From the IMG/VR virus record IMGVR_UViG_3300040801_002290, positions 1 to 64,000 of that record: 64,000 nucleotides of DNA, one strand, 5' to 3'. Positions 223-47,376 of the stretch are shown piece after piece. Each line of letters opens with the position of its first letter. The stretch's first letter is position 1. The stretch comes from a virus. The notes beneath the pieces are model-generated. The model was not told the origin of the DNA, made no database searches, and saw nothing but the letters and a program-made list of their open reading frames with translations. The translations under genes and the position numbers were made by a program.

Positions 223-309
223 TGGTGCCAGGTTAGGGATTCGAACCCTATATCCCGTAAGGGAACGGTTTTACAGACCGTCGTGCCACTCCAACTGCAC
301 CGCCCTGAC
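223..309 (-). tRNA. tRNA-Tyr(GTA)
   Basis: Cloverleaf, loop CTGTAAA, long variable arm, TTCGAAT T-loop, encoded CCA. Confidence 0.93.
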
Positions 310-375
310 ATAAAGTGAGCCTTTTTAGAACATGCTCAGGTTTCCTTACCATGGAATGTTTGCTCGCCTTTCGGC

Positions 376-451
376 TGGTACGCCCACTAGGATTCGAACC
401 TAGAACCGCCAAGATATAAGCTTGATGCTCTGACCGTTGAGCTATGGGCGC
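376..451 (-). tRNA. tRNA-Ile(TAT)
   Basis: Cloverleaf, loop CTTATAT, CCA. Confidence 0.92.
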
Positions 452-460
452 TCATTTAGC

Positions 461-578
461 GTGAGTAGGGTCGGCGTGTACCGGACGCCGCGTTTTACTT
501 CTAACCTTTTGGTTCTTCACACTACCCTTACGTAATGTGTTCCCCTACTCCTGATTACCGACCGCTCTTCGTCGGATT
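461..578 (-). ncRNA. putative multi-hairpin ncRNA
   Basis: Closing helix 463-470/543-550 enclosing three hairpins, extra 5' hairpin 558-575, promoter directly upstream. Confidence 0.45.
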
Positions 579-584
579 GAGTAC

Positions 585-616
585 AGTATAGCCTACGAGA
601 CTATGAGAGTTATGAG
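585..616 (-). promoter_or_regulatory. phage TCTCA-class promoter
   Basis: CTCA-N4-TCTCA-N13-TATACT. Confidence 0.75.
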
Positions 617-634
617 AGGCTTTCTGTAATACAC

Positions 635-663
635 ATAATACACTATTATTTACTGGGTGTCAA
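635..663 (-). promoter_or_regulatory. sigma70/sigmaA-type promoter
   Basis: TTGACA-N17-TATTAT. Confidence 0.6.
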
Positions 664-679
664 GTATATTCGTTTCCAA

Positions 680-1171
680 CTAAATCCTCCCAGTTGTGAC
701 TAGGTTATTTACAACGGTGATAACACCAGTGTCGTCTTCGTCATCACCTTCCCAAGTTACCGACCCACTAAGAGTATACCCCCACGGAATGAGAAAGTGA
801 TGAATGATGTAATTAAGCCATTCTACGTATTCGTAAAACTTCTCTCCACCATCCCACTCAATATACTTACCGTCAAGACTGGGAATCCATTGACACCACA
901 GACCGGGTTGAGAGGGGGGAGGGTCATTGTATTCAATAATACTTGGGTCATGGTCTTGACCCCGAAAACCCAGACCACCAACGAAATACTCCCCAAACCT
1001 ACCTACAGGAAGGCCGACAACGTGTCGAACGTCGTCTTCAAGCAGCCTAGCCTTATTCTCGTCCCGCTTCATGCGGCGGGTTTCAGAAAACTGGGTCAGG
1101 TAATGAGAATGCTCAGCGGTAAGTGGACGGTTAAGTTCAAATTGTCCGTAAAATTCAGTGCTATATCCCAC
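680..1171 (-). CDS. conserved phage hypothetical protein
   Basis: 163 aa ORF, GLWCQW...WDGGEKFY motif-like segment, RBS-like GGAG. Confidence 0.8.
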   Translation of the reverse strand: MGYSTEFYGQFELNRPLTAEHSHYLTQFSETRRMKRDENKARLLEDDVRHVVGLPVGRFGEYFVGGLGFRGQDHDPSIIEYNDPPPSQPGLWCQWIPSLDGKYIEWDGGEKFYEYVEWLNYIIHHFLIPWGYTLSGSVTWEGDDEDDTGVITVVNNLVTTGRI

Positions 1172-1331
1172 TTTTAATCAACTCCTCAATAACATCAATA
1201 AGACCTTCAAGCGCATGTAATGGGCTACAGTCTAGCCAGGAAAGGTATTTATAATCCTCGGAATTAGTGACGATAGCGACCCACTCTTTATCTTCCGGGC
1301 TATAGAAAACCTTAAACTCAAGACCCCTCAT

Positions 1332-1577
1332 TTATAGCCTTCCGACTGCCATCTCTCCTAGGGCATGGGCGAAGTCCCTAAAATCTCTGCCTGATAGAGT
1401 GATAACACATGCTGGATTGAACGGGTCAAAAAATTCTACCTTCTCAGGTCTACCTTCTCTATCAAACCCGCGAACACGAATCACAAGAACAGGCTTGTCA
1501 GGAAAGTCCTTGTTGACAATAACAACCTCACTGGCCCTGTGCATTAGCCTTCTCCTTTTTGTGGGCCACGAATTCAT
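1332..1577 (-). CDS. hypothetical protein
   Basis: ORF in co-directional run; start uncertain. Confidence 0.6.
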   Translation of the reverse strand: MNSWPTKRRRLMHRASEVVIVNKDFPDKPVLVIRVRGFDREGRPEKVEFFDPFNPACVITLSGRDFRDFAHALGEMAVGRL

Positions 1578-1797
1578 TCACGGCCTGAGCAAAAAGCTCA
1601 AACATGTCATCCCCGATGGTAACAAAGGAAACCTTTTTCGTTTCACTATCCCAGTAGGAAATCTCCATCATACTTAGGGAATCCACGTCGTCAGCTACCT
1701 GAATGAAAAATCCAAGGTTATCATCCCAGATTCGATAAACACGCTCAAGTGACACTTTGCCCATTATTGTTCCTCCGTAAGAAGCTGGTAAAACCAC
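1528..1797 (-). CDS. hypothetical protein
   Basis: ORF; true start probably MGKV downstream of GGAGG. Confidence 0.65.
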   Translation of the reverse strand: MVLPASYGGTIMGKVSLERVYRIWDDNLGFFIQVADDVDSLSMMEISYWDSETKKVSFVTIGDDMFELFAQAVNEFVAHKKEKANAQGQ

Positions 1798-2045
1798 TCT
1801 GGAATTCCCTTGTAATCATAGTAAGGAATATCCTCGTACTGATGAACGGTGCTGGTTCCTGCGTAGGTATAGCTTGAGAAACGGACCACCTGAGAACCAA
1901 CGTGAAAACCTTCGTCTGGCTCTTCAAAGGAGATACGCAAATCCCTACCACCTACTACCTGACCATAGTCTTCATCCAACCAGTAGATTTTCTCCGGGTT
2001 TGGAAACTCAGACAGGATTTTTGAAATAAGCATCGTGGTGTTCAT
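1764..2045 (-). CDS. hypothetical protein (probably leaderless)
   Basis: ATG 6 nt downstream of TAGTAT -10 box. Confidence 0.7.
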   Translation of the reverse strand: MNTTMLISKILSEFPNPEKIYWLDEDYGQVVGGRDLRISFEEPDEGFHVGSQVVRFSSYTYAGTSTVHQYEDIPYYDYKGIPEWFYQLLTEEQ

Positions 2046-2051
2046 AAGCAC

Positions 2052-2083
2052 ATACTACAGGAGCAGTTAGTGAGAAGTGTGAG
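2052..2083 (-). promoter_or_regulatory. phage TCTCA-class promoter
   Basis: CTCA-N4-TCTCA-N13-TAGTAT. Confidence 0.75.
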
Positions 2084-2389
2084 TTACTCCTGGTCAACTA
2101 TAGGAGCAACAACGATTCTCTTATCGGGACCAATAAATACTCCCGTCTCACCTAAATCTATGAAAACAGGTAGGGGCTGTTTTATAGCGGCTAAAAGGTC
2201 TTCTTCGCAACCCTTAAGTCCTTCTAGAGAGGCGTGTAAGTTACTCTTAGCCCGGTAATATTCTTTGACTACTTCTGAGTTTCGATATTCCTGCTCAGCT
2301 TTCCAATACTTTTCCTCTACCTCTTCGTGATTCTTATGGTAGATAGCGTAATCTTCTGCCAATCTAGCGAGATTCATCATATACCTCAC
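2084..2389 (-). CDS. hypothetical coiled-coil protein
   Basis: 101 aa ORF, GAGG RBS. Confidence 0.7.
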   Translation of the reverse strand: MRYMMNLARLAEDYAIYHKNHEEVEEKYWKAEQEYRNSEVVKEYYRAKSNLHASLEGLKGCEEDLLAAIKQPLPVFIDLGETGVFIGPDKRIVVAPIVDQE

Positions 2390-2506
2390 ATTCGTGTTCT
2401 ATATACTCCCCGTTAATAAAGGTGAGACACCTTGGTGGAGTAGAGCTAAATCGGGGTTGTTCAAAAAGCCCGTCAATAGTGATTAGAAGTAGTATCAAAA
2501 AGATAA

Positions 2507-2788
2507 TCATAGATAACCAGCTAACTCAGCTTCTCTAACGGCCTTCAAAACTTCTTGAGTACTGGTATAGACTCCCCGCTTCTCCCCGTCTACATAAACA
2601 TCGTAAACATCATCAAACGGGTCGTGACGAGAGCGGTACCTTACTTCAACCCCTAAACGGTGCAAATAGTCCTTCTCTACCTTAGAAACATGCTGCTCGG
2701 CAGAACTAAAAAGAGCTTTTGCTCTTTTATACTCAGAGTACAATTCATCTTTTCTCTCTCTAGCTCTCTTAACGTCTTCCCAAGTCAT
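2507..2788 (-). CDS. hypothetical protein
   Basis: 93 aa ORF. Confidence 0.7.
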   Translation of the reverse strand: MTWEDVKRARERKDELYSEYKRAKALFSSAEQHVSKVEKDYLHRLGVEVRYRSRHDPFDDVYDVYVDGEKRGVYTSTQEVLKAVREAELAGYL

Positions 2789-2964
2789 TTTCAGCCTTTC
2801 TTAAGTCTTCCATGACTTTTCTCCAATCATCAGCAATTGCCTCTTTATCTCTCTCAAACCCACCGTCATAGTACCTAGAGAATTTTCTGGGCCGGGGAAA
2901 AAGAGTTATATAGGACATGCCACGAAGAAAAGACTTTAACCAGTTCATATGCTCTCCTGTTACA

Positions 2965-2996
2965 ACTCTATCATTGATTATTATGAGACAAATGAG
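2965..2996 (-). promoter_or_regulatory. phage TCTCA-class promoter
   Basis: CTCA-N4-TCTCA-N13-TAGAGT. Confidence 0.65.
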
Positions 2997-3042
2997 AGGC
3001 CCCCGGTCAATAGCCGGGGGGTCACTCTATAAAAAGTAGAAC

Positions 3043-4245
3043 CTATTGTTTGTTGGGCAATAACCAGTTAAGCAAAACGCCCGCAATACCAGCTAGACCA
3101 ATGCCAGCTAGAGAGAAGTCACCGATGTTTAGAGCCATGCCACCAACCCCGAACACGAGAATCACGGCTACGATGATTAGATTTCTATTATTCGAAAAGT
3201 CTACCTGAGCTTTAACCAAAGTGCTAATTCCAACTACAATAATTGAGCCGAATAGAACTACGAGAATTCCACCCATAACTGGTACTGGAATCGTTGCCAG
3301 AATAGCTCCCAGCTTGCCTACGAAGGCTAGCACAATAGCCAGCACCGCTGCTACTACCATGATGATAGGACTAAATGCCTTGGTTAATGTAACGGCTCCT
3401 GTGACCTCAGAATACGTGGTGTTTGGTGGCCCGCCAAAAAATGCTGCTAGTACAGTAGCAAGACCGTCGCCTAGAAGGGTGCGATGCAACCCTGGCTTTT
3501 CCAGATAATCCTCGCCAGTCACACCGCGAATTGCGATAATGTCTCCAACATGTTCAATCGCCGGGGCAATCGCCACAGGCACGATAAACAGGATAGCTGC
3601 TAAAGAGAATACGGGGAAAACGAATTCAGGTGTTGCAAACCAAGCAGCCTGAGCTACAGGAGTGAAATCCACCATTCCCAATAAAAGGGCAACAACATAC
3701 CCGGCTGAAATACCTACCATGATTGGGATTAGTTTGAAGATACCCTTTGCTAATAGGGCAGTGGCAATGGTAGCTGCCAAAGAGACTGCGGCTACAAGAA
3801 TAAACGTCCAACTATAGTCCCCTACTGCTGTACCAGTCGCCATGCTGACGGCAGTGGGAGCCAGATAAAGGCCGATAGCCATAATAACGGGACCAGTTAC
3901 AATGGGTGGAAGAATTCTATGAACAGCCTCTACTCCCTTAGATTTTGCTAAGGCCGCTAAAAGAACATAAACCACACCCGCCGCCATCAAGCCTGAAAGC
4001 GTGGCGGGCAAGCCGAATAGTGCTATACCACCAATAATTGCCGGTATGAAAGCAAAAGACGAGGCTAGAAAAACCGGCACTCTAAAACCAGTAATTATGT
4101 GAAAAAGTAAGGTACCAGCGCCAGCAGTGAATAGGGCCACATTTGGGTCTAATCCTGTCAGCAGTGGTACCAAAACTAAAGCGCCAAATGCAACAAACAG
4201 CATCTGAGCGCCTAATACGAAAGTTCTCGGGCTTAAATCATTCAT
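3043..4245 (-). CDS. uraA: uracil/xanthine permease (NCS2/NAT family)
   Basis: QMLFVAFGALVLVP start, LASSFAFI, EHVGD, GDGLAT, PNTTYSE motifs; many TM segments. Confidence 0.93.
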   Translation of the reverse strand: MNDLSPRTFVLGAQMLFVAFGALVLVPLLTGLDPNVALFTAGAGTLLFHIITGFRVPVFLASSFAFIPAIIGGIALFGLPATLSGLMAAGVVYVLLAALAKSKGVEAVHRILPPIVTGPVIMAIGLYLAPTAVSMATGTAVGDYSWTFILVAAVSLAATIATALLAKGIFKLIPIMVGISAGYVVALLLGMVDFTPVAQAAWFATPEFVFPVFSLAAILFIVPVAIAPAIEHVGDIIAIRGVTGEDYLEKPGLHRTLLGDGLATVLAAFFGGPPNTTYSEVTGAVTLTKAFSPIIMVVAAVLAIVLAFVGKLGAILATIPVPVMGGILVVLFGSIIVVGISTLVKAQVDFSNNRNLIIVAVILVFGVGGMALNIGDFSLAGIGLAGIAGVLLNWLLPNKQ

Positions 4246-4297
4246 GTGATTCTCCTTTTACCCAAAGTCTAATCATATCACTAGAACTTTGACACAA

Positions 4298-4498
4298 TCA
4301 AAACGTGGATGCTCTATTGTGTGCTTTCCAATAACCAGCGGCCCACGCCTCGTGCAACTCTGTATTTCCGCGTCCCATAGTCAGATATGGGTTTACGGTT
4401 GGCAACAAACCGCGACGATAGGCATTGGCACCGGCTTCCCAGGCTAGGCCGAATTCCTGAAACCCAGGGGTAGTATTTAGGGGCATAGGCTTACTCAT
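4298..4498 (-). CDS. small Rmf/CrpP-like protein
   Basis: GxxAxxxG...NPY...W..G[YW] pattern. Confidence 0.5.
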   Translation of the reverse strand: MSKPMPLNTTPGFQEFGLAWEAGANAYRRGLLPTVNPYLTMGRGNTELHEAWAAGYWKAHNRASTF

Positions 4499-4838
4499 CG
4501 TAATCCTCTACTAAAACCAAATCAGTGTCATAATCATCAGGAATCCCAGTTTCCCAGTCCCTATAGGCAGTAGTTACAGCCTCGTAAACTTTTCCGACTA
4601 TAAGACCTTCTTCTGGCAAATGAATCGGGGCTTCGATACCATACTCAGCTAGGTCATCGAAAATTGGGTCCCACTCTGGCAGAGGAGTAATCCTTTCAAG
4701 AGTAATACCGGTAACAAAATCAATACCATCCCCAATACCCCACCACCCTTTACACTCAACGGCTCTATATAGGTGACGAGATTTGGGTCTGAGTTCCCTC
4801 TCTGCTTGAAAGATGCTCTCTATGGAAACAAATGACAT
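4491..4838 (-). CDS. hypothetical protein
   Basis: 115 aa ORF, GGAG RBS. Confidence 0.7.
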   Translation of the reverse strand: MSFVSIESIFQAERELRPKSRHLYRAVECKGWWGIGDGIDFVTGITLERITPLPEWDPIFDDLAEYGIEAPIHLPEEGLIVGKVYEAVTTAYRDWETGIPDDYDTDLVLVEDYDE

Positions 4839-4857
4839 GTTATCTCCTTATAGGCAC

Positions 4858-4889
4858 AGTCTACACTAACTAACCATGAGAACAATGAG
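4858..4889 (-). promoter_or_regulatory. phage TCTCA-class promoter
   Basis: CTCA-N4-TCTCA-N13-TAGACT. Confidence 0.72.
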
Positions 4890-4982
4890 TGTATCAAACA
4901 CCGGCAAAAAACCGGCTTTGGACACATAAGTTTGAAAAGTATCAGATTTAGATACTCACACTACGCCTTTGACACTAAAGTT

Positions 4983-5010
4983 AAACCCCGGCTTTTACAC
5001 CGGGGTTATT
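4983..5010 (-). terminator. intrinsic terminator after the Phe-His-Pro tRNA block
   Basis: AACCCCGG/CCGGGGTT hairpin with flanking T-run. Confidence 0.6.
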
Positions 5011-5013
5011 GTT

Positions 5014-5091
5014 TGGTCGGGAATGCTGGATTCGAACCAGCGGCCCCTCGCTTCCAAAGCGAGTACTCTAGCCAGACTGAGCTAATTCCCG
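5014..5091 (-). tRNA. tRNA-Pro(TGG)
   Basis: Loop TTTGGAA, CCA. Confidence 0.93.
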
Positions 5092-5094
5092 TTA

Positions 5095-5170
5095 TGGTCT
5101 GGGGTGTAGGAATCGAACCTACCTATATCCTGGCTCCAAACCAGGTGACACCCCTTGCGTCTGACCCCAG
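5095..5170 (-). tRNA. tRNA-Pro(TGG), divergent second copy
   Basis: Loop TTTGGAG, atypical D arm, CCA. Confidence 0.8.
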
Positions 5171-5171
5171 A

Positions 5172-5247
5172 TGGTCGGAAGGACACGAGTCGAACGTGCG
5201 TCCCCAACGCCCCCAGCGTTGTGCTTTAGCCTCTAAGCTACCTTCCG
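5172..5247 (-). tRNA. tRNA-Pro(GGG)
   Basis: Loop CTGGGGG, CCA. Confidence 0.9.
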
Positions 5248-5250
5248 TAA

Positions 5251-5328
5251 TGGGACCGAGTACGGGATTTGAACCCGTGATTACCAGATTCACAGTCTGG
5301 TGCCTTTGACCACTTGGCTAACTCGGAC
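5251..5328 (-). tRNA. tRNA-His(GTG)
   Basis: Loop CTGTGAA, G-1:C73, CCA. Confidence 0.92.
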
Positions 5329-5331
5329 ATG

Positions 5332-5408
5332 TGGTGGAGCCTAATGGAATCGAACCATTACCTCAAGATTTTCAGTCTTGCGTGCAGCACCTTGCACACC
5401 CAGGCTCC
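5332..5408 (-). tRNA. tRNA-Phe(GAA)
   Basis: Loop CTGAAAA, CCA. Confidence 0.92.
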
Positions 5409-5411
5409 ATA

Positions 5412-5597
5412 TTACTTAACTAAATCTATATACAAATCTCCAACAATGTTTTCAATTGGAATGATTAGAAACCCGTCGGAAAAATGAATTCTGATATAAG
5501 ACGGTTCCCAATCTATCGCAATAGCGTCTTTAAACCCGCTGTCAACTTTAGAACCGTCTGGCATACGCAAAGTGTACTCTGAGCTATAAGAAGCCAT
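5412..5597 (-). CDS. hypothetical protein
   Basis: 61 aa ORF coupled to upstream gene. Confidence 0.65.
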   Translation of the reverse strand: MASYSSEYTLRMPDGSKVDSGFKDAIAIDWEPSYIRIHFSDGFLIIPIENIVGDLYIDLVK

Positions 5598-5878
5598 TAT
5601 TTCCTCATTCCAAATTTACGGCGGCGATTCATTCTATGAAGTTTCTCAAACCCGTCTAGAATCAAAGCCCCAACAAATGCAATTCCTACAACCGCTAAAG
5701 CAAACGCACCGAGGCCGAGAAAAACTCCCACGTAAATAATGAGTGGGGCAAAAAACGAGGCTACAATCCACCACCAAGAGATGTCGATAACTTCAACAAG
5801 CTTAAGCACAATAAGGACGATTGTCAAGACCCCGAAAACGGGGAAAGACGGCAGTTTGATATCAACCTCTCGGCTCAT
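5597..5878 (-). CDS. membrane protein
   Basis: 2-3 hydrophobic segments, ISWWWI motif. Confidence 0.75.
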   Translation of the reverse strand: MSREVDIKLPSFPVFGVLTIVLIVLKLVEVIDISWWWIVASFFAPLIIYVGVFLGLGAFALAVVGIAFVGALILDGFEKLHRMNRRRKFGMRK

Positions 5879-5901
5879 GTGTTTCCCCTTTCACAAGTCT
5901 T

Positions 5902-5932
5902 AGCATAGCACAACTAGTATGAGAGTTATGAG
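5902..5932 (-). promoter_or_regulatory. phage TCTCA-class promoter
   Basis: CTCA-N4-TCTCA-N12-TATGCT with extended TG. Confidence 0.7.
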
Positions 5933-6210
5933 TCGTTGTTTCCCGTAATGGTGAGGTTACTTGTCCAGGTGTACTGACTCGGGGAGCAGGGGCATCTACT
6001 AACGTGTGGAGCATTTACTCCCCCGCATTTAGGACAAACCCATCCGGTGGGTGCGGTAGACGGGTAATATGGAGCGGTTGGGTAATAAGGGTATGGGTAA
6101 TAGGGATTAATCCACCAGCCGTCATAATACCAGTTAGAATTCTGTGTGCCACTAGTTTGACTGTCCCAAGTCTTATAATATTGCTCTCCGGGCTCCAAGT
6201 TTATAAACAT
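5926..6210 (-). CDS. Tyr/Pro-rich protein with zinc ribbon
   Basis: WVCPKCG...CPC. Confidence 0.7.
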   Translation of the reverse strand: MFINLEPGEQYYKTWDSQTSGTQNSNWYYDGWWINPYYPYPYYPTAPYYPSTAPTGWVCPKCGGVNAPHVSRCPCSPSQYTWTSNLTITGNNDS

Positions 6211-6232
6211 GGCTTTCTCCCAACTATAAAAT

Positions 6233-6382
6233 AAAACTCCAGTCCAGGTCGCTCACTTTTACGATACATACTCTTGTCTTTTTGCAACACATATCTCAGG
6301 TTGCGGCAGAGTTGCCTACCAGTTATATACTGGATGCCTCGTACTACGTCTTAGTGACGAATGCCCTCGATGCTGGAGTTTT
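6233..6382 (-). ncRNA. putative structured ncRNA abutting the tRNA-Trp 3' end
   Basis: 10-bp terminal stem 6233-6242/6373-6382 plus internal hairpins. Confidence 0.5.
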
Positions 6383-6456
6383 TGGCACGCCCACTAGGAA
6401 TCGAACCCAGGACTTCGGTTTTGGAGACCGACGTTTTCCCGCTAAACTATAGGCGT
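6383..6456 (-). tRNA. tRNA-Trp(CCA)
   Basis: Loop CTCCAAA, CCA. Confidence 0.93.
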
Positions 6457-6549
6457 ATGCGAAAAAGGCGGCTTCATGTTTCGTAAGCACTTTAAACGCG
6501 GAGGAATAGGTAGCTCTCCCTCACGTACCTTTTTCTTACTGCTACCACT

Positions 6550-6623
6550 TGGAGCGGAATAAGAGAATCGAACTCTTCTAATCGGTTTGGAAGACCGGAG
6601 CATTACCACTATGCTAATTCCGC
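6550..6623 (-). tRNA. tRNA-Gly(TCC)
   Basis: Loop CTTCCAA, CCA. Confidence 0.93.
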
Positions 6624-6634
6624 GTGTATGAGTA

Positions 6635-6663
6635 GTATAGCACTACCCAATTTGGTTGTCAAG
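6635..6663 (-). promoter_or_regulatory. sigma70/sigmaA-type promoter
   Basis: TTGACA-N17-TATACT. Confidence 0.7.
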
Positions 6664-6676
6664 GCTATTTATAATT

Positions 6677-6764
6677 TGGCGGAAGGTACAGGATTTGAAC
6701 CTGTGTGCCTTTTACAGCGCACCGCTTTCCAAGCGGGCCGATTTAACCACTCTCGCAACCTTCC
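6677..6764 (-). tRNA. tRNA-Ser(GGA)
   Basis: Loop TTGGAAA, long variable arm, CCA. Confidence 0.93.
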
Positions 6765-6768
6765 AGGT

Positions 6769-6858
6769 TGGCGGTGGGGGTGGGATTCGAACCCACGGGG
6801 CTATGACACCCACAGTCTTAGCAGGACTGCGCTATAAACCTGACTCTGCCACCCCACC
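6769..6858 (-). tRNA. tRNA-Ser(GCT)
   Basis: Loop CTGCTAA, long variable arm, CCA. Confidence 0.93.
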
Positions 6859-6909
6859 GTACTCTCGTGCATCATCCCTTTAAACGACACGGTTACCTCA
6901 TATGGACAC

Positions 6910-6941
6910 ATGATACAACTACAGCACATGAGAATTATGTG
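6910..6941 (-). promoter_or_regulatory. phage TCTCA-class promoter
   Basis: CACA-N4-TCTCA-N13-TATCAT. Confidence 0.7.
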
Positions 6942-7016
6942 GAAAGGGAGGAGGGATTCGAACCCCCAACATTCGCGTTCAAAGCGCGATGCAACTGCCA
7001 ATTGTGCTACTCCCTC
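6940..7016 (-). tRNA. tRNA-Gln(TTG)
   Basis: Loop CTTTGAA, CCA. Confidence 0.9.
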
Positions 7017-7155
7017 ACAAATCAGTCCATCAAAAATGTCACAAGAAACAAGCCGATGAATAGTAAAAGCAAAAATGCCCACACCGGAATGTAATAAAAC
7101 AGGACTAGAATAAAGAATAGAAAGAATAATAGATTCATAGTCCCGCCTTTGTAGT

Positions 7156-7230
7156 TGGAGCCCTATGTCGGAATCGAACCAACATCAACTGTTTACAAGA
7201 CAGTAGTTTTAGCCATTAAACTAATAGGGC
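7156..7230 (-). tRNA. tRNA-Thr(TGT)
   Basis: Loop CTTGTAA, CCA. Confidence 0.93.
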
Positions 7231-7234
7231 ATTT

Positions 7235-7309
7235 TGGCTCACCCTCTAGGATTCGAACCTAGGACCATACGGTTAACAGCCGTGCGCTCTTCCGCTGAGC
7301 TAAGGGTGA
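7235..7309 (-). tRNA. tRNA-Asn(GTT)
   Basis: Loop CTGTTAA, CCA. Confidence 0.93.
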
Positions 7310-7312
7310 ATA

Positions 7313-7385
7313 TGGAGACCCGTGGCAGAATCGAACTGCCTCTAGTAGTTTTGCAGACTACTTTCTCTCCATGAGAATACGAGTC
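7313..7385 (-). tRNA. tRNA-Cys(GCA)
   Basis: Loop CTGCAAA, U73, CCA. Confidence 0.88.
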
Positions 7386-7587: not shown

Positions 7588-7608
7588 AGTCTGCTCCTTG
7601 GTTTTAGT

Positions 7609-7684: not shown

Positions 7685-7699
7685 GCGCCCACATAAAGG

Positions 7700-7730: not shown

Positions 7731-7731
7731 T

Positions 7732-8446: not shown

Positions 8447-8458
8447 ACGATGAGGATG

Positions 8459-40079: not shown

Positions 40080-40410
40080 GGAGGTAGACATGCTTAGGAC
40101 CCAGGACTATTATAGACATCATGTATCCAGGGTTACTAGAAACCGAAACCACCTTTGGAATGATTCCAAAAGAGAAGAGTACTTTAACTCAGTCTCTAAG
40201 GGAAAAGAATTCTACATAATAGGGTATCCTGAATCTACCACTAGATTCTCTAAAACCAAACCGTTTGATTGTGGTGTGCCTGGATGCCCGTGCTGCCACG
40301 AAGATAAACTAAAGAAGCGCCGCTTTTGTATAAACGACGCTGCTGTTAGTAAATTTTTAGATGAATGGGGCGTTGAGACTCCGGAAGAATTCCTTACAAA
40401 TCAATTTTAA
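40066..40410 (+). CDS. small basic protein with CxxxxCPCC
   Basis: DCGVPGCPCCH; probable start MLRT after GAGG. Confidence 0.65.
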   Translation: MYQDKEVDMLRTQDYYRHHVSRVTRNRNHLWNDSKREEYFNSVSKGKEFYIIGYPESTTRFSKTKPFDCGVPGCPCCHEDKLKKRRFCINDAAVSKFLDEWGVETPEEFLTNQF

Positions 40411-40963
40411 CACTTTCTCTACTGCCGATGTAATCAATGAGTTGAAAAATCATCGGCAGTTTTTTATTGCTTTGTAAAAGTTTATTCGGGCTAAACCTAC
40501 CTAAATGAGAGGAAACGCATTCCATAATCTCATCGTATACCCTCTTCTCTATAAACCTATCAGCATCTGCGTTGAACGGAAACATATATTCTACATATAC
40601 AGGGTGCAGAGGGTCGGTGTAATTTAGAGTTCTGGGTGGTATACCCCTAGAAAAGGAATCGTGCAATATACACGCGGAAATTAGAACATCCCTCTCCCAA
40701 GCATTGAGATTATAAAATCTAACCATATGCTCTGTAAGACGAATTAATCTTCTTACATGCAGGACCAACCCACCAGGCTGTCTTTCATCTTTGGGATGAT
40801 ATTTGCTGTTACTGGCAGGGACCTCCCAAAAGTAGTCTGGGAATCTGTCTATTGAGGAGATTAGAAACTTCTTTATGTTTCCATCTGTCAGCTTTTCAAG
40901 CTCTCCCTCTATGTGGAGCTTGCTTATCTCTCTTAGTTCCATGTTAACCTTTCTATAAGTCAT
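40394..40963 (-). CDS. HD-domain phosphohydrolase
   Basis: PASNSKYH...GGLVLH...ILHD...H.G. Confidence 0.85.
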   Translation of the reverse strand: MTYRKVNMELREISKLHIEGELEKLTDGNIKKFLISSIDRFPDYFWEVPASNSKYHPKDERQPGGLVLHVRRLIRLTEHMVRFYNLNAWERDVLISACILHDSFSRGIPPRTLNYTDPLHPVYVEYMFPFNADADRFIEKRVYDEIMECVSSHLGRFSPNKLLQSNKKLPMIFQLIDYIGSRESVKIDL

Positions 40964-42884
40964 TGAATGGAAGAACGTCAGAAAGGCGCAGTGTTTTTCC
41001 GGACTCTTTTAGTGTTCTCCAGGAGCCTAAGCCTGTGGTCATAGAATTTAGAGACTCCTGATAGGCTGCCTTATCGTCTTCTGTGGCAACTTTATTCTTT
41101 ATTCTTTGTTCTACATTGTTAGTTGCAGAAGTTCCAGCACCCAAAACATCTCTGTAGGGCCACTCATACTTCAAGATTCTAACCATTCTAGCTAGAGCAT
41201 CGCTAATATCTTTTGTCTGCCCCTCTATGTGGTCTATCTTAGGGGGATTTTTCGTTCTATCTTCTCTAAGGTTTCTTAGCTCCTCATAAACAATAGGATG
41301 CCATGGGAAGTCTATTCCACCGTTAGATTCTTTGGTACCTTTTCCGTTAGAGGGAGGAGCTTCACCAAAAATAGCATCCCTAAGAGCGGTATAGTCTTTG
41401 TAGTCTACAATACTTCTGTCATAGACTATCACGTTCTTATACGTTTTTGAAATCCACTGTGTTAGAGAAATGCTATTCCAACCATCGAAGGAAAAGATTC
41501 TTATATTATAACCCATTCTTTCCTTAAGTTTCTTTATTAGATTCTCAACCGCAACCATCTGCACTTGTCCCTCTTCGAACATTCTGCCCGTAAATCTAAA
41601 GGCAAAGTCGATAACGGGTCTTACGTACTTTCTTCCATCCTCGTCGGTTATCATCTCTCGGTGACCAAGACATATTCCATAACCGTCTCCACCATTGGCT
41701 TCGCTTCCAAGGGCTGGGTCTCCGGTTAGAACGTAATAGAAGTTTGGGTTACCGTACTCTTTAATGGGAATGTCATAAGGGTCTAAAACCTGTAGGACAT
41801 CGTTGGAGTCTTTATATTGAGATTCAGACATGGGGGCGGCTCTCCACTCATCGTGGGATTCCTTATTCCACCATAATTCGCTTCCCACCGGCTGGGGGTC
41901 ATAGGGAAGTGGCCAGTCAATAATCCACGGCCTAGTCACATTCATGGCATTCTTTATTCTTCTCTGGTCTTTTAGCCAAGAGTCAACGAAGGAGCCAGAA
42001 TCCTCAGAGCCATACATACAGGCAGCCTTCTCTGGGTTTTCGTTGTAGTAGGTTTGGAAGTCGTCTTTGGACAGAATTGGGTGAAATTCCCAAGACGCAT
42101 AACGTTTTGCGTAAACGTGGTCAAGCCCTCTAGCTTTACTGTAATACTCCATAATCTTACCTGAGGAACCTACATACCTCCGGTAAGAGATTACCATAAT
42201 CTTTTCTTTACCACGAAATCTGGACTGGGAGGAAGTACGAAGAGTGTTTACAATCTTCTCTACTCCGTGGAATTCAACATCATCAACCTCGTCTGCAAGA
42301 GCCATTAAAACGTCGTATCCTTCGATACCACCGGCCCTACTGTTTGCAGAGATAATATGAATATTCTGAGGGAAAGTGATGCTGCTTGCCTGAATGTCAT
42401 TAACTGGGTCAAAGCCAAAGTTCTTAAAAGCTTTGTTACCAGAGGCTCGGATAATATTCTTTAGTGGTTCGAAGAAGTTATCCTGAGCCTGCTTAGCGTT
42501 AATAGCAACGTTGATGAATGTTAAAGCCTTAGCCCGGTTATGGTTAAGGTATTTGTGAGCATCATACATGCATAGAAGCTTATATGCTGCGTAAAGGAAA
42601 AGAATACCGGAAGACCAGTTCTTTCCCCCACCCTTACCTACGAAAAGGACAAAGAAGTTTATTCCATTTTCGAAGTCAGAAGCTTTCTCAATGAATTCCT
42701 TCTGAGCCTCAGACATTCCCCACATCCCCTGATTTAGATAATCCGGGCTGTATACAAATGTCTCAAGGTCAACTGGCTCTATTCTATAAACCTCACCAGA
42801 GGCTTCCTTTACGGCGTGTTCTCCACGACGCATAAGATTACCCCACTCGGAAGTCGCCTTAAAAGCCTCCTTCTTCTTAGGCAT
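40953..42884 (-). CDS. terL: terminase large subunit
   Basis: GKGGGK Walker A, LADEVD Walker B, ISYRR, GDPA, SFDGWNS, KDISDA nuclease acidic residues. Confidence 0.88.
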   Translation of the reverse strand: MPKKKEAFKATSEWGNLMRRGEHAVKEASGEVYRIEPVDLETFVYSPDYLNQGMWGMSEAQKEFIEKASDFENGINFFVLFVGKGGGKNWSSGILFLYAAYKLLCMYDAHKYLNHNRAKALTFINVAINAKQAQDNFFEPLKNIIRASGNKAFKNFGFDPVNDIQASSITFPQNIHIISANSRAGGIEGYDVLMALADEVDDVEFHGVEKIVNTLRTSSQSRFRGKEKIMVISYRRYVGSSGKIMEYYSKARGLDHVYAKRYASWEFHPILSKDDFQTYYNENPEKAACMYGSEDSGSFVDSWLKDQRRIKNAMNVTRPWIIDWPLPYDPQPVGSELWWNKESHDEWRAAPMSESQYKDSNDVLQVLDPYDIPIKEYGNPNFYYVLTGDPALGSEANGGDGYGICLGHREMITDEDGRKYVRPVIDFAFRFTGRMFEEGQVQMVAVENLIKKLKERMGYNIRIFSFDGWNSISLTQWISKTYKNVIVYDRSIVDYKDYTALRDAIFGEAPPSNGKGTKESNGGIDFPWHPIVYEELRNLREDRTKNPPKIDHIEGQTKDISDALARMVRILKYEWPYRDVLGAGTSATNNVEQRIKNKVATEDDKAAYQESLNSMTTGLGSWRTLKESGKTLRLSDVLPFNDL

Positions 42885-43555
42885 TAGTTAACCTCTTCTA
42901 AAGTCCTGCTTGCTATCTTGCCACCATCTGAGTCCCAGTAAAACATAACGTCTTGACTAGATAGAGACTCAAGGACTCTCTTGGCTTCTGGGTCCGCGTC
43001 TAAAGCCCTCTGAATTTTTCTATAAAGGGTTGGGTCCTCTTGCCTTAGTATGTCTGTTACTACCTTAACGTAGGACACCTCACGCTGCACATCAAGCACT
43101 TGAGAGAATAGGCTAATGTACCCCTCAAGGTGTTTCTGAGCCCCGGCGACAAGACTGGCCATCTTCTGTGCGTTGGAGTACCACTGAGACAGAAGAGCGG
43201 CGTTTTCTCCCTTGTTTAGTGCTTCGATTCCCTCTTCCGAGATTACCTTAGCAATTTTTTCCCTAAGCATCTCTGAGACAATACCAGTAAAAGCCAACTC
43301 CTTAGCAGAATGGTGAACACTCTGAAAGTAGTAGCTTATGACATTTAGGGGGTTAAAGTCATCAGACATGGCAAGAGCTTCAAGCTTCTCGTCATTAAAG
43401 TTTTTTAGTTTGTGGTCTCTTAAAAACCTATATACCTGGGTATAGGGTACCTGTAAGTCTTCTGAAATCTGCTTTTGATTATAACCTTTTATATAAAACA
43501 ACTCTAAAACTTTGTCTGTTAAGTTTCTTTCTACTAATTCTTTGTGACGCATCAT
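42884..43555 (-). CDS. putative terminase small subunit (N-terminal HTH)
   Basis: HTH GYNQKQISEDL; directly upstream of terL with 1-nt overlap. Confidence 0.6.
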   Translation of the reverse strand: MMRHKELVERNLTDKVLELFYIKGYNQKQISEDLQVPYTQVYRFLRDHKLKNFNDEKLEALAMSDDFNPLNVISYYFQSVHHSAKELAFTGIVSEMLREKIAKVISEEGIEALNKGENAALLSQWYSNAQKMASLVAGAQKHLEGYISLFSQVLDVQREVSYVKVVTDILRQEDPTLYRKIQRALDADPEAKRVLESLSSQDVMFYWDSDGGKIASRTLEEVN

Positions 43556-43920
43556 CTATCTCCTGGGGTGTTGACTCCACAAACCCAATGTCTTTTTCCC
43601 TCGTTAGATGACGGCACCAGTTCAAATACTAACTCATTCTCCTTCTCAACAATCTTGTTAACTCTCCAAGTGGTAAGCCACTCGGCAAAAGAAAAGGTGT
43701 CACCTATATCTAACCATCTGAAATCTTCTACATTCAAGTATTGAACATTGAAGTTCTCTTCCAACCCTCTTTCTTTGATTTCGTATTTTATGAATCTTCT
43801 GAGGTTTGAGTAATGTACGTTATATTTTTCAGCTATCTCGCTCATGTTCATCTCACGCTCAAGATAGTCTTTCATTATTAACTCTGAAAATGGCCTAAGC
43901 TTCTTAAATCTTCCGTTCAC
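43552..43920 (-). CDS. HTH DNA-binding protein
   Basis: MSEIAEKYNVHYSNLRR. Confidence 0.65.
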   Translation of the reverse strand: MNGRFKKLRPFSELIMKDYLEREMNMSEIAEKYNVHYSNLRRFIKYEIKERGLEENFNVQYLNVEDFRWLDIGDTFSFAEWLTTWRVNKIVEKENELVFELVPSSNEGKRHWVCGVNTPGDR

Positions 43921-44731
43921 CTATAATCACGCTCCCTGGTGGGAGTTTCGCGCCTTTGGACAGGGTTACATTCTCGACTGTAGCCTCCAAAGCAATGGTG
44001 TCCTCAATAGATATTCCATCTAGATAGGCATCCATAACAAAGGAACTGGTCACTCTGGAATTTATTACTTCCGTTGTTCCAAGAATGACAGTCCCCGGAG
44101 AGATATAAGAGTTCTCTACTCTAACATTTTTCCCAATGAAGCAAGGTCCACACACTGTAGAATCTCTAGACACATTTTCCGAAAGTATTATCGGATTTCC
44201 GTAAGTCCTGGCAGTAACTCCGACAGATTGTATAGACAGGTTCTCTACTAAATCCTGATTGAGCCTTAAGTAGTTCTCCTCTGTTAAATTGACAAAGTTT
44301 TTAAACCCGTCAAATTCCTCTGGCGCGGCTAGTTCCTGCCCCCTCTTTAGGTATCCACCAATTACTCCCCGATTTGTGAATAGTTTTTCGGGGTTCTGCT
44401 TTAAGTGGGAGATGTCCTGGTCAAAAAAATCTCCCAACATCAAAGAAAAGAGTCCGGTTATAAAAACCAGTTCATAATCTCTTTTCTGAGAAGTCGAGAG
44501 TTGATTTATTACATCGCCAGAATAAAAGCTGAAATTGGAAGAGTTCTCTATATGCGGTTCCCAGGAGGAGGGAAGAAAAATAGTATAATCCTCATCCAGA
44601 ATTATACTATTCCTCACCACGCCTGTGCCTAGAAAAGACAATAGATTAGAGGACAAGAACGGAATCTCAAATTCCGGTCTCTGAAAGAAATTTATTAAAG
44701 CACTGTCTGATTCGTAAATAAAAACCTTCAT
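43904..44731 (-). CDS. degenerate sugar-nucleotidyltransferase-like protein with left-handed beta-helix
   Basis: C-terminal GPCFIGKNVRVENSYI hexapeptide-type repeats. Confidence 0.6.
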   Translation of the reverse strand: MKVFIYESDSALINFFQRPEFEIPFLSSNLLSFLGTGVVRNSIILDEDYTIFLPSSWEPHIENSSNFSFYSGDVINQLSTSQKRDYELVFITGLFSLMLGDFFDQDISHLKQNPEKLFTNRGVIGGYLKRGQELAAPEEFDGFKNFVNLTEENYLRLNQDLVENLSIQSVGVTARTYGNPIILSENVSRDSTVCGPCFIGKNVRVENSYISPGTVILGTTEVINSRVTSSFVMDAYLDGISIEDTIALEATVENVTLSKGAKLPPGSVIIGERKI

Positions 44732-44763
44732 ACTTGTAATTATAACCTATACAAGTCTGGGAG

Positions 44764-45306
44764 TCAATCTATTGAATCATATATTTCCTTTACGTGGCGA
44801 GAAAAGCGACGTTTCTTTAGTGTTTCTCTGTCGTCTTCTTCGAAACCACGAAAGTCATGTATACCGTCCTTCATACCTGACAAGTACTTCTCATTGTTTA
44901 CTAGGTACTTCTCAGGAAGTTTCCTTTCTTCCCCCATTCCAAATTCCCTTAGCAACACAGCTAGAGGTTTGGAATAAATAATTGTTTCGTACCTCTCCGG
45001 AGACAGCACCCTAAACCGGGCTGCCAGATTAAACGCATCTTCCACGGACTCGTATAGCTTGGTCGCATCTTCATCGTCATACATTCGAAAAACAACTTGT
45101 CCTCTGTAATTGGAGAGGTTGGCAATTCCCCGCGAAAGAAAACACCCGAAGAAATAGCCCAGGCTATAGTCGGAGTTTACATATATTCTTAGCCAGGAGT
45201 TTCCATTAATAATAAACCCATCCCTGACTTCCTTGGCCCGCTTAACATAGTGAGCCATGTTTATAGTGAAGCCTTTCTTATCAGAAGTGATAAAGTCTAG
45301 CGCCAT
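44764..45306 (-). CDS. degenerate LAGLIDADG (intein-endonuclease-like) protein
   Basis: LGYFFGCFLSRG and YLSGMKDG resemble LAGLIDADG motifs but lack the first catalytic Asp. Confidence 0.6.
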   Translation of the reverse strand: MALDFITSDKKGFTINMAHYVKRAKEVRDGFIINGNSWLRIYVNSDYSLGYFFGCFLSRGIANLSNYRGQVVFRMYDDEDATKLYESVEDAFNLAARFRVLSPERYETIIYSKPLAVLLREFGMGEERKLPEKYLVNNEKYLSGMKDGIHDFRGFEEDDRETLKKRRFSRHVKEIYDSID

Positions 45307-46300
45307 TCTCTATCACCGTATGGGGAGTAACTTTCAAAAATTCCTTCTTCTGCCAAAACTCTTCAAGGTCGTGAGAGTCGGAATAAGACATCGCGCTGGT
45401 TAATCCGTCTTTCAACTCGGTCATAATATCAGCTATAGTCTTTCCCTCATAAGGTATGAACCCAGAGTCTCCCTCAATGTAGCTTTGTACTCCTTTTTCC
45501 TCAGGGGAAGCCATACCACGGTAGGGCTTATACCACTTACCATCGTGCTTAACTTCTCTCCAAGGTGTTTCTTTAGCGGAGGCAAAAATCTTACCCATCA
45601 TAACTAGGTCAGAGCCGAGAGCTACGGCTTTAACAAAATCAGCTACACTTTTTACTCCACCGTCAGAAATGACAGGTTTTCTAGATAGATTTTTGGTCTC
45701 ATCAATCAACCAAGCCTGTGGCGCACCCACACCGGTAGTGACTCTGGTAGTACACCCAGTTCCGCTGCCAATACCAATCTTAAAAGCTATTTGACCAAGT
45801 AAGTCTCTTCTGAGAACTGCACCCGGATTACCAAAATTTCCCACAATAAGTGTAGGGAGAGGGGTAATATAGTCCCCTCCCCACTGAATATCCCTGATTA
45901 TAGCTCCGTTTGCTATATCAATAGAAACGACAGCCTTCTCTGGAAGAGACATAAGCTCTTCCTTATAGAGTTCAAATTCTGTTAGGCTCACAGCTATTCC
46001 ACACTGAATTCCTAAAGTAGAAAGAGACTGAACTGCCTTTAGCCTATCAGAAAAAGAAGTTGACCTACTAAAAATGTGCAACGAGCCAGCCTCAGCCATC
46101 GCGTTAGCAAAGCTATATACGATTGACCTAGAATTTTCACTCTCGGTGTCAAACAAAGACATGCTAGCGGAAATAGCTGGAAGAGAGAAGTTTAGATAGT
46201 TGTAAAGTTTAGAGGACACATCTACCTCAGTCCTAGACTTAACCGAAGAATAAGCTTTGGGCTTAATAAGAATATCGTCAAAGGTGTAAGTTTCGGTCAT
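45281..46300 (-). CDS. IMP dehydrogenase/GMP reductase family protein (no CBS domains)
   Basis: TFDDILI, IDIANG, KIGIGSGTGCTTR, SDGG, YRGMAS. Confidence 0.92.
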   Translation of the reverse strand: MTETYTFDDILIKPKAYSSVKSRTEVDVSSKLYNYLNFSLPAISASMSLFDTESENSRSIVYSFANAMAEAGSLHIFSRSTSFSDRLKAVQSLSTLGIQCGIAVSLTEFELYKEELMSLPEKAVVSIDIANGAIIRDIQWGGDYITPLPTLIVGNFGNPGAVLRRDLLGQIAFKIGIGSGTGCTTRVTTGVGAPQAWLIDETKNLSRKPVISDGGVKSVADFVKAVALGSDLVMMGKIFASAKETPWREVKHDGKWYKPYRGMASPEEKGVQSYIEGDSGFIPYEGKTIADIMTELKDGLTSAMSYSDSHDLEEFWQKKEFLKVTPHTVIENGARLYHF

Positions 46301-47376
46301 TAGTTTATTTCCTCCCCGGTTTCTCTCTTTGCGTACGCAGGGTTAATGACCTTAAGAAATAGGCGTCTGCCGTCTTTGGTGAACCTCATAGTTTCTGGCC
46401 TGACGACAATACCCTCCTTTATGTGAAGCTCTTTACCGGAAATTTGCTCATTGCCCCTGCACATCTCTTCAAGAATGACATCCTTCAACTTTCCCAGGTG
46501 AAGAATTGGAACCCAAAGCTCCATTAGGTAAGCCGGTATGCTGGGACCTTCTCCTGAGAAGTCAAGACTGTTTCCGCTGTACCTAGCGTCAAATACAATA
46601 AGCTCGGGCTCCTTGAACCCATATGTCCAGTTTCCGCCCTGGACTGGAACTACTTCACCGAAAACCTGTACAGTTTCTACTTCCCCGGTGTAAGACTTTA
46701 TTTCCCTCTGAAAAGCCTTCATTCTCTCTCTAATATCAATCTTATTACCGGCACGCCAGTAAGCGTTTGTATCAGACTCCTTAATCATGAGGTGCTTGTC
46801 GAAAAGACCCTTAGAGGTTACAAAGAAGTCCCCCTGAGAAGTAAGAGTGTACGCCGCCTGAGAGCCGTGAATCTTTTCCGTAATCACTACCCTGTCCTCA
46901 GGTACAAACTCGTCTCTATAAACCGAGAATTGCTCTACATCATGCTTAGAGTAGCTTCCACCAGGAATCGGAGCAACCTGTCCCGCCAACTCAATGGGAA
47001 CAGGAGGCTCGTACTTTGTAACACCAAAAATACCTGAGTAGTCAACGTTTGACTGAACAACCATAGCTGGAGACTTTGGGTTTAACACTGCAAAAGCATC
47101 TCGTGGGTGCATGAGAATACCCATGGACAATTCGCCACGAAGCCTAACGGACTTTACCCTGTTACCTTCTGAACCAGCTAGATAAGCCTGATACTTTTCC
47201 TTTAAAGCCCCGGAAAGAAGGGACTTCTCTGGGATAACAAAAGCTCCTTCTCCTGGTCTGTATTCTCCCTTTCTTACAACAAATTGGTAGTTCCCTGCGC
47301 GAGCAATTTCCAACGAATCCGCGTTTGGGTGTGGAAAAAGCTCAACTTGCCTATAAAATACTCCCCATTCAGCCAT
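46300..47376 (-). CDS. RNA ligase, DRB0094/Rnl2-like with N-terminal OB-type domain
   Basis: HPNADSLE, VKSVRLRGELSMG, TEKIHGS, VFGE, KEGIV, KVIN..Y. Confidence 0.9.
   Translation of the reverse strand: MAEWGVFYRQVELFPHPNADSLEIARAGNYQFVVRKGEYRPGEGAFVIPEKSLLSGALKEKYQAYLAGSEGNRVKSVRLRGELSMGILMHPRDAFAVLNPKSPAMVVQSNVDYSGIFGVTKYEPPVPIELAGQVAPIPGGSYSKHDVEQFSVYRDEFVPEDRVVITEKIHGSQAAYTLTSQGDFFVTSKGLFDKHLMIKESDTNAYWRAGNKIDIRERMKAFQREIKSYTGEVETVQVFGEVVPVQGGNWTYGFKEPELIVFDARYSGNSLDFSGEGPSIPAYLMELWVPILHLGKLKDVILEEMCRGNEQISGKELHIKEGIVVRPETMRFTKDGRRLFLKVINPAYAKRETGEEIN

Follow-up and report, generated by a model that had tools for sequence, protein, structure and literature searches.

An unusually broad, lineage-conserved set of predicted tRNA-supply and RNA-repair genes in a 194-kb phage distantly related to phiYS40

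In phage T4, the Pnkp and Rnl1 enzymes repair tRNA-Lys after its cleavage by PrrC. In jumbo phages, a counter-defence repertoire has been described that comprises tRNA provisioning, RtcB, Rnl1/Rnl2 ligases, RlaP, TROVE proteins, phosphoesterases, and Macro domains (Iyer et al. 2021, PMC7824862). RlaP adds 1-2 nucleotides to damaged RNA, with tRNA function restored (PMC12776372), and small alarmone hydrolases undo the toxSAS pyrophosphorylation of the tRNA CCA end (10.1101/2021.04.30.441581). Chen et al. (2014, PMC4201824) described YrlA beside Ro60 in 22 phages, and work on bacterial Ro60-Y RNA has reported that the YrlA of M. smegmatis is cut by RNase P and receives CCA (PMC4201824, PMC7790460). 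Here we analyse the first 64 kb (64,000 nucleotides, hereafter the window) of IMG/VR record IMGVR_UViG_3300040801_002290, a single-contig virus record of 194,021 bp with 44.5% GC and a CheckV completeness estimate of 97%, which carries tRNA, tmRNA, and RNase P RNA genes together with RNA ligases, end-repair enzymes, and Ro60. A first-pass annotation of the window had described these genes as a near-complete, self-sufficient kit for tRNA maturation, repair, and rescue, coordinated for counter-defence. Its parts list was borne out, each item lying in the sequence where it had been placed (ARAGORN, Rfam, Pfam, PHROGs).

As judged from its sequence, the phage is distantly related to the Thermus phages phiYS40 and TMA, the named members of the phiYS40 type, whose host is Thermus thermophilus; its relatives have a major capsid protein with ~49% identity to the one of these two phages. 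The region and its RNase P RNA gave no match in megablast/blastn searches against 50,697 phage records, and no cultured phage has closely similar DNA. The genome under study (G000) was compared with two large relatives from IMG/VR, G001 (201,951 bp, syntenic with G000, ~50% protein identity) and G002 (190,018 bp), and with a phiYS40-type genome, also from IMG/VR, G003 (157 kb, 33% GC). A tRNA array, tmRNA, RtcB, an Rnl5-type ligase, a metallophosphoesterase, a YhaM-like HD protein, a macro-domain protein, a PhoH-like ATPase, and a CCA-type nucleotidyltransferase are common to G000, G001, and G002, which carry 31, 29, and 28 tRNA genes, respectively. The phiYS40-type G003 carries 3 tRNA genes and none of the tested parts. 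Phages that supply and repair their own tRNA are known, and this set is an example of unusual breadth, conserved within its lineage. Probably, supply and protection or repair of tRNA are two jobs of this one conserved, scattered set. All parts lie on the minus strand unless stated otherwise, and those that bear on supply, listed together with the permease that gives the host lead, are the following:

223-14210, minus strand: array of 31 tRNA genes (ARAGORN; Rfam tRNA)
20035-20417, minus strand: tmRNA (RF00023, 149 bits against a gathering score of 47; ARAGORN)
27073-27395, minus strand: reduced class-A RNase P RNA, 323 nt (RF00010, 126 bits against a gathering score of 100)
G000:137840-139573, outside the window, minus strand: CCA-adding-type (PolyA_pol) nucleotidyltransferase, 577 aa, with a C-terminal HD domain (82 bits)
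3043-4245, minus strand: phage-borne xanthine/uracil permease (PF00860, 304 bits)

The 3' CCA is encoded by 31/31 tRNA genes and many of them are spaced by 1-4 nt, so that one RNase P cut would release both neighbours and leave only a short trailer. ARAGORN detected no further tRNA in the rest of the 194-kb genome. The best lead to the host comes from the permease, which shares 74-75% identity with genes of four Trueperaceae metagenome-assembled genomes (MAGs) and at most 66% with any other match. The host is thus likely a Trueperaceae bacterium with a GC content of about 70%, the permease loci in these MAGs having 70-73% GC, and this lead agrees with the capsid kinship to Thermus phages. As a membrane transporter, the permease is also an unusual auxiliary gene for a phage. 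Codon usage differs sharply between the phage and these host loci, as seen from the shares of synonymous codons held by AGA (44% in the phage versus 2% in the host loci), ATA (27% versus 1%), CTA (23% versus 1%), and ACA (22% versus 1%), for each of which a cognate phage tRNA is present. More generally, the A-ending codons AGA, ATA, CTA, TTA, ACA, GGA, GCA, CCA, and AAA are common in the phage, nearly unused in the host loci, and decoded by phage tRNAs. This tRNA set is in keeping with codon supply to a phage of 44.5% GC that grows in a GC-rich host.

The RNase P RNA is located 13 kb away from the tRNA array and not within it. Both strands of P4 are present, and the RNA aligns to the helices of the specificity domain of the model. 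Comparison of the G000 and G001 copies revealed 79 pairs, 19 of them compensatory and 0 broken, which is strong evidence for a working RNase P RNA fold. By its score, its P4 core, and its helices kept by compensatory change, it is a member of RF00010. Only the universal core is in common with the Trueperaceae copy aligned to it. The gene is present in G000 and G001 only, being missing from G002 and from the phiYS40-type G003, and it was not found in phages Atuin, VanLee, Alone3, or TMA; our literature search found no paper on a phage RNase P RNA. The tmRNA is full-length, with a tag that ends in ALAA and the G3-U pair kept. Its gene does not encode CCA, and the tmRNA would thus need a CCA-adding-type enzyme. 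Full-length tmRNAs were detected with Infernal in G001 (74802-75105, 90.8 bits) and in G002 (43274-43635, 106.6 bits), genomes for which ARAGORN gave none, indicating that ARAGORN negatives are unreliable for divergent phage tmRNAs. The CCA-type nucleotidyltransferase, a further tRNA-end enzyme that the first-pass annotation had not listed, is kept in G001 (51% identity) and G002 (49%).

Two sets of neighbours were observed around the tmRNA. A SLOG/YpsA-like protein (19449-19979, minus strand; phrog_289, with Pfam matches below cut-off) lies directly upstream of it and is found in G001 and G002. The rIIA (phrog_612, 345 bits) and rIIB (phrog_609, 207 bits) homologues at 16257-19408, minus strand, lie between the tRNA array and the tmRNA and are conserved in the same two relatives.

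The second half of the set comprises ligases and enzymes that act on RNA ends:

29065-30339, minus strand: RtcB RNA ligase (PF01139, 224.7 bits versus 27)
46300-47376, minus strand: Rnl5-type RNA ligase, DraRnl/NgrRnl-like, as DRB0094 (PF21189 and PF09414)
25439-26083, minus strand: small ATP-dependent RNA ligase with KLDG as motif I (PF09414, 74.7 bits; phrog_24030)
26067-26729, minus strand: calcineurin-type metallophosphoesterase (PF00149, 41.2 bits; phrog_1649)
9567-10271, minus strand: RlaP pol-beta nucleotidyltransferase (PF10127, 39.6 bits versus 23; phrog_388, E 6.5e-32)

RtcB enzymes join a 3'-phosphate or a 2',3'-cyclic phosphate to a 5'-OH. The phage protein keeps the active site of PH1602, with its Asp, its Cys, and its four His residues, in the motifs GPDPAC, GNHF, THFGSRG, PHNF, and SHGAGR, and it has the features of a full-length family member, including the predicted His-GMP nucleophile. 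The Rnl5-type ligase consists of an OB domain (PF21189, residues 13-89) followed by a nucleotidyltransferase domain (PF09414, residues 162-343). Its best solved match is the RNA ligase of Naegleria gruberi (NgrRnl; PDB 5cot, E 3.7e-13), in which VKLDGS aligns with the EKIHGS of the phage protein, lysine on lysine, so that motif I reads KIHG. This domain order and the motif I lysine are those expected of an Rnl5 ligase. Homologues with 44% and 41% identity are encoded by G001 and G002, respectively. The small ligase corresponds to a nucleotidyltransferase domain only, and its gene overlaps that of the metallophosphoesterase, which is a candidate 3'-end healing enzyme with homologues in both G001 and G002. 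RlaP scores above the family cut-off of PF10127 and has a 36% identical homologue in G002, whereas in G001 only a 28-residue tblastn match was obtained. A PDB sequence search returned no match for the small ligase, the metallophosphoesterase, RlaP, or the second HD protein of the region described below. Together, RtcB and the ATP-dependent ligases would cover both end chemistries left by RNases.

Several genes adjoin these enzymes. A free-standing LAGLIDADG homing endonuclease abuts RtcB:

28173-29063, minus strand: LAGLIDADG homing endonuclease (PF03161, 70.2 bits)

The open frame of the G001 RtcB (G001:78499-80865) is 797 aa long and is interrupted, between profile positions 153 and 154, by ~356 additional in-frame aa; this insertion looks like an intein, and RtcB is intact in G000. 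A basic open reading frame (ORF) of 148 aa (30329-30775, minus strand), not seen in G001, overlaps the start of RtcB by 11 nt. In its Atlas model, the C-terminal half is weakly similar to Sm/LSM-like folds (TM 0.37-0.66), and ESM Atlas look-ups of this ORF and of the one beside the RNase P RNA (27604-28128) gave weak or unnamed matches only. A gene of the IMPDH/GMP-reductase family (45281-46300, minus strand, 166 bits) overlaps the stop of the Rnl5 ligase.

Besides the end-repair enzymes, the window encodes two proteins that may counter tRNA modification, as well as Ro60 and candidate partner RNAs:

32082-32603, minus strand: HD protein of the small-alarmone-hydrolase (RelA/SpoT hydrolase) type (phrog_990, 93.5 bits)
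11478-11669, minus strand: TacA-like peptide (PF08681, 33.6 bits against a cut-off of 21, profile positions 46-79 of 80)
32696-34243, minus strand: Ro60/TROVE ring protein, Rsr-like (PF05731, 63 bits)
34244-34606, minus strand: rsr leader of ~360 nt with two box units (34371-34394 and 34570-34592) and a promoter-like site at 34639-34611
10291-10436, minus strand: divergent YrlA-like (tRNA-mimic) RNA, directly after tRNA-Leu(UAA)

The alarmone-hydrolase-type protein is a stand-alone protein that matches the (p)ppApp hydrolase 7smg of the PDB over residues 14-154 (E 2.1e-10). The HD dyad is kept in ILHDYFED, the Pfam HD_4 score being 15.3 bits, below the cut-off of 27.2. In G001, only a 43-residue tblastn match to it was obtained.

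The TacA-like peptide, which likely starts with the ATG at 11645, keeps only the toxin-binding C-terminal segment (NPPEPNEAL) and matches the toxin-bound peptides of TacA, AtaR, and KacA. The RHH block of the TacAs of the candidate host family has no counterpart in the alignment, and no GNAT ORF was seen adjoining the peptide. It would thus resemble the neutralising part of TacA without being a full member of that family. A homologue is encoded within the tRNA array of G001, and TacA1 modules are found in 18/81 genomes of the candidate host family. Modelled in complex with a TacT-like GNAT from one of these genomes, the peptide scored 0.66, a mark reached by 51/78 solved complexes and by 2/108 mismatched pairs, and the best of 3 controls scored 0.00. 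The runs agreed in at least 90% of contacts, with a partner pLDDT of at least 69. Since TacA-TacT-like complexes have already been solved, this pass may reflect likeness only and not binding.

Ro60 aligns over residues 13-506 with the TROVE structure 9kop, a full-length match. The vWA_Ro60 profile scores 17.7 bits, below its cut-off, and the protein is consistent with the family architecture of a HEAT-repeat ring followed by vWA. It is 48% identical in G001 and missing in G002 and G003. Recent capture of Ro60 from the host was considered and not shown: among the 151 Deinococcota genomes sampled, Ro60 proteins are at most 41% identical to it, no closer than phage homologues.

Up to an E of 10, Rfam gave no Y RNA hit near rsr, neither in G000 nor in G001; in a control, the search found YrlA beside Ro60 in three actinophages (32-47 bits). 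The RNA at 10291-10436 has RF02553 as its top Rfam family in a focused scan, with 19.2 bits and E 0.065 at 10309-10418, far below the gathering score of 69. The alignment covers model positions 1-114 and includes a perfect T arm (CCAGGUUCGAAUCCUGG). A T arm, an acceptor-like stem, and a D arm follow one another in the order seen in YrlA, the closing stem is present in the minimum-free-energy fold, and the fold z-score is -2.84. The RNA is encoded on the same strand as rsr, ~22 kb away, and thus outside the ~4 kb expected of YrlA genes. It does not carry the GNCGAAN0-1G motif, the position of which is taken by a box of sequence GCAGCCAS-N9-12-ACTTC. This box occurs 5' in the YrlA-like RNA and twice in the rsr leader, that is, 3 copies against 0.01 expected. 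One of the leader boxes is 27/28 identical in G001, and the box is not present in the Ro60-less G002 and G003, occurring only in the Ro60-bearing genomes. The YrlA-like RNA and the two leader units are therefore credible non-canonical Ro60 partner RNAs, outside the described family.

The presence of the parts, their intact motifs, their conservation, and the covariation are observed, whereas we infer the activities, the host, and any joint action. The early, leftward-transcribed 47 kb of the ~194-kb phage holds RNA genes and RNA enzymes that probably have supply and protection as two jobs. On the side of supply, the tRNAs, 31 in number and all with an encoded CCA, are rich in readers of A-ending codons and would serve the phage in a presumed ~70% GC Trueperaceae host, the reduced phage RNase P RNA would cut the packed tRNA precursors with host RnpA, the CCA-adding enzyme with its HD domain would contribute from outside the window, and tmRNA would free stalled ribosomes with host SmpB. 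On the side of repair, RtcB would seal breaks with 2',3'-cyclic phosphate and 5'-OH ends, while Rnl5, and the small ligase with the metallophosphoesterase, would seal breaks with 3'-OH and 5'-phosphate ends once these have been healed; where one or two 3' nucleotides have been lost, RlaP would put them back. Protection would come from the small alarmone hydrolase, which may strip toxSAS pyrophosphate from CCA ends or degrade (pp)pApp, and from the TacA-like peptide, which may block GNAT toxins that acetylate aminoacyl-tRNA. Finally, Ro60 and the divergent Y-like RNAs may handle misfolded or damaged RNA. A bolder version is put forward tentatively, as a possibility that we hold to be rather doubtful: the phage would have a semi-autonomous tRNA life cycle (genes, RNase P, CCA enzyme, tmRNA) and specific antidotes to four or more chemically distinct kinds of attack on tRNA (cleavage, 3' nucleotide loss, CCA pyrophosphorylation, and aminoacyl-tRNA acetylation), with the TacA-like peptide as a GNAT neutraliser and the GCAGCCAS...ACTTC box as a new handle for Ro60 binding.

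The counter-defence role proposed by the first-pass annotation stands in part. The parts are real, most of them are conserved in the two nearest relatives, and several would match known routes of tRNA damage: cleavage (RtcB, Rnl5, the small ligase with the phosphoesterase, and RlaP), CCA pyrophosphorylation (the alarmone hydrolase), and aminoacyl-tRNA acetylation (the TacA-like peptide). The set may thus serve counter-defence. However, codon supply is a strong explanation for the half made up of the tRNAs, RNase P, the CCA enzyme, and tmRNA, and in a ~70% GC host it would account for the tRNA, RNase P, and tmRNA genes at least as well as counter-defence does. Could the whole set then be a pure translation-supply module, with decoders for A/U-ending codons, a maturation pathway (RNase P RNA, CCA enzyme, and a 3' trimming nuclease), tmRNA for rare-codon stalls, and ligases and Ro60 for ordinary RNA processing and quality control? 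The codon mismatch with matching anticodons argues for it, as does the fact that large tRNA arrays are accompanied in this lineage by RNase P RNA, tmRNA, and the CCA enzyme, and RNase P cutting of tightly packed, CCA-encoding tRNAs would be rate-limiting. We nevertheless consider it unlikely. The TacA fragment, the alarmone hydrolase, RlaP, and three RNA ligases lack an obvious role in plain supply, and G002 has 28 tRNAs and no RNase P RNA. In addition, the phiYS40-type relatives manage with only 3 tRNAs at 33% GC, which indicates that codon mismatch alone does not demand an array, and the host behind the mismatch is itself deduced, its assignment being based on one acquired gene and on capsid kinship. 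These last two points also weigh against the favoured reading of supply plus protection, as do the absences and the scatter that follow.

The terms near-complete and self-sufficient had to be dropped. RtcA, archease, SmpB, and an AAA_33-type polynucleotide kinase were not found in the 194-kb genome, RnpA (PF00825) gave no match in it up to an E of 1, and ARAGORN found no tRNA-Met, tRNA-Val, or tRNA-Glu on the G000 contig. The ribozyme and the tmRNA must therefore use host proteins, and, with no AAA_33-type 5' kinase found, breaks with cyclic phosphate and 5'-OH ends would reach the ATP-dependent ligases only with host help. As for these three tRNAs, all are encoded by G001, and those for Met and Val by G002; the G000 array begins 223 nt from the contig end and may be truncated there. 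Nor could the parts be called coordinated: they form no single operon and are scattered over 47 kb, interleaved with rIIA/rIIB, an SNF2 helicase, the permease, the collagen-like gene, and many unknown genes. Co-occurrence in relatives holds for the core, which is kept in G001 and G002 and absent from the phiYS40-type genome, and fails for Ro60 and RNase P RNA, missing in G002; for RlaP and the alarmone hydrolase, the matches in G001 are short (28 and 43 residues). Such patchiness between close relatives fits independent accessory genes as well as it fits a system. It might then be argued that there is no system at all, only an early accessory compartment of independently acquired and individually selected genes that a reader has grouped into a kit. 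The interleaving with unrelated genes is in keeping with this, as are the rearranged gene order between G000 and G001, the patchy distribution among relatives of Ro60, RNase P RNA, RlaP, the alarmone hydrolase, and the Cys phosphatase, and the homing endonuclease and intein activity seen in the region. We judge it distinctly unlikely, for the core (RtcB, Rnl5, the phosphoesterase, the CCA enzyme, tmRNA, and the tRNA array) is kept in three genomes at ~50% protein identity and jointly absent from the phiYS40-type phages, while Ro60 inside tRNA arrays recurs in unrelated phages and RNA ligases, RlaP, and tRNAs occur together in jumbo phages (PMC7824862).

The region encodes further proteins whose place in the set is less clear:

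40394-40963, minus strand: second HD-fold protein, YhaM-like (phrog_5889)
21331-21870, minus strand: Cys phosphatase-like protein with HCWAGISRS as HCX5R(S) loop
35963-36535, plus strand: macro-domain protein, ADP-ribose processing (PF01661, 48.9 bits), conserved in G001 and G002
37785-38447, plus strand: PhoH-like ATPase (PF02562, 165 bits)
4298-4498, minus strand: weak Rmf-like small ORF (PF04957, 21.6 bits against a cut-off of 27.9, E 2.3e-4)

The AlphaFold2 model of the second HD protein (pLDDT 75) has the exoribonuclease YhaM as its only significant structural match (Foldseek, 9h3f_A, E 6.7e-5, TM 0.66), and its gene is kept in G001 and G002. A part in DNA packaging was considered, given that a neighbouring protein weakly matches terminase; the YhaM fold match weighs against it, and the model suggests that the protein is more likely an RNA or DNA 3' exonuclease than a packaging part. 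The neighbour in question is a 643-aa core protein (40953-42884, minus strand) with a weak match to the terminase large subunit (phrog_9). Its G001 counterpart (G001:103941-107060) has 1039 aa, with two matching blocks that are separated, which makes a second intein-like insertion likely. The Cys phosphatase-like protein scores 17.8 bits with DSPc, below the Pfam cut-off, and has weak DUSP matches in the PDB. The link of the macro-domain protein and the PhoH-like ATPase to the RNA set is loose. The Rmf-like ORF falls below the Pfam cut-off and so does not qualify as a ribosome modulation factor; no clear homologue was found in the relatives. The Rmf-like protein and the Y RNAs of the first-pass annotation can thus be retained as located features, the one below its Pfam cut-off, the others divergent and without Rfam-level support. 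A collagen triple-helix repeat protein (30877-31788, minus strand; PF01391, 94 bits) is encoded between RtcB and the pair formed by the alarmone hydrolase and Ro60, and its gene occupies the same place in G001.

Should the parts function in the way proposed here, a single phage would allow tRNAs as codon supply to be tested against tRNAs as decoys for tRNA-targeting immunity. The purpose of a viral RNase P ribozyme and the RNA partners of phage Ro60 would become testable, as would the idea of stripped-down phage antitoxins directed at toxins that modify tRNA. It is in just these accessory parts that the nearest relatives diverge, and they provide natural comparisons.

How does this locus compare with the systems described so far? 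The cast is that of the jumbo-phage scheme of Iyer et al., with tRNA arrays, RtcB, ATP-dependent ligases, end-healing phosphoesterases, RlaP, TROVE/Ro, and Macro domains, and the purpose proposed there, countering host attack on the translation apparatus, is also the one that the first-pass annotation had read into the window. The present phage differs in that it belongs to a phiYS40-related lineage and, with 194 kb, lies just below the usual jumbo size; the terms RNase P RNA and tmRNA have 0 occurrences each in that paper (PMC7824862). In the phage collection, RtcB is found in 679 records and Ro60 in 78, and Ro60 genes lie inside the tRNA arrays of the unrelated phages Atuin and Alone3. The Salmonella rsr-yrlBA-rtcBA operon likewise combines a Ro60 orthologue, a tRNA-mimicking Y-like RNA, and RtcB. 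Here, however, rsr and rtcB are 2.4 kb apart with genes between them and form no operon, and RtcA, encoded by the Salmonella rtcA, was not found, RtcR not having been searched for. With the Pnkp and Rnl1 of T4, the phage would have in common the logic by which tRNA that a host anticodon nuclease has cut is healed and sealed by phage enzymes. It differs from T4 in that no Pnkp-type kinase was found and in that RtcB, an Rnl5-type ligase, and a domain-minimal ligase take the place of Rnl1. Finally, the TacA-like peptide and the antitoxins of TacA-TacT, AtaR-AtaT, and KacA-KacT have the C-terminal NPPxPNExL toxin-binding segment in common, whereas the phage peptide has no RHH domain and no adjacent toxin and lies inside a tRNA array, and thus looks like an orphan neutraliser and not like an addiction module. 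The less-described elements that this phage adds to the known strategy are its RNase P RNA, a TacA peptide without a DNA-binding domain, and a new box linked to Ro60.

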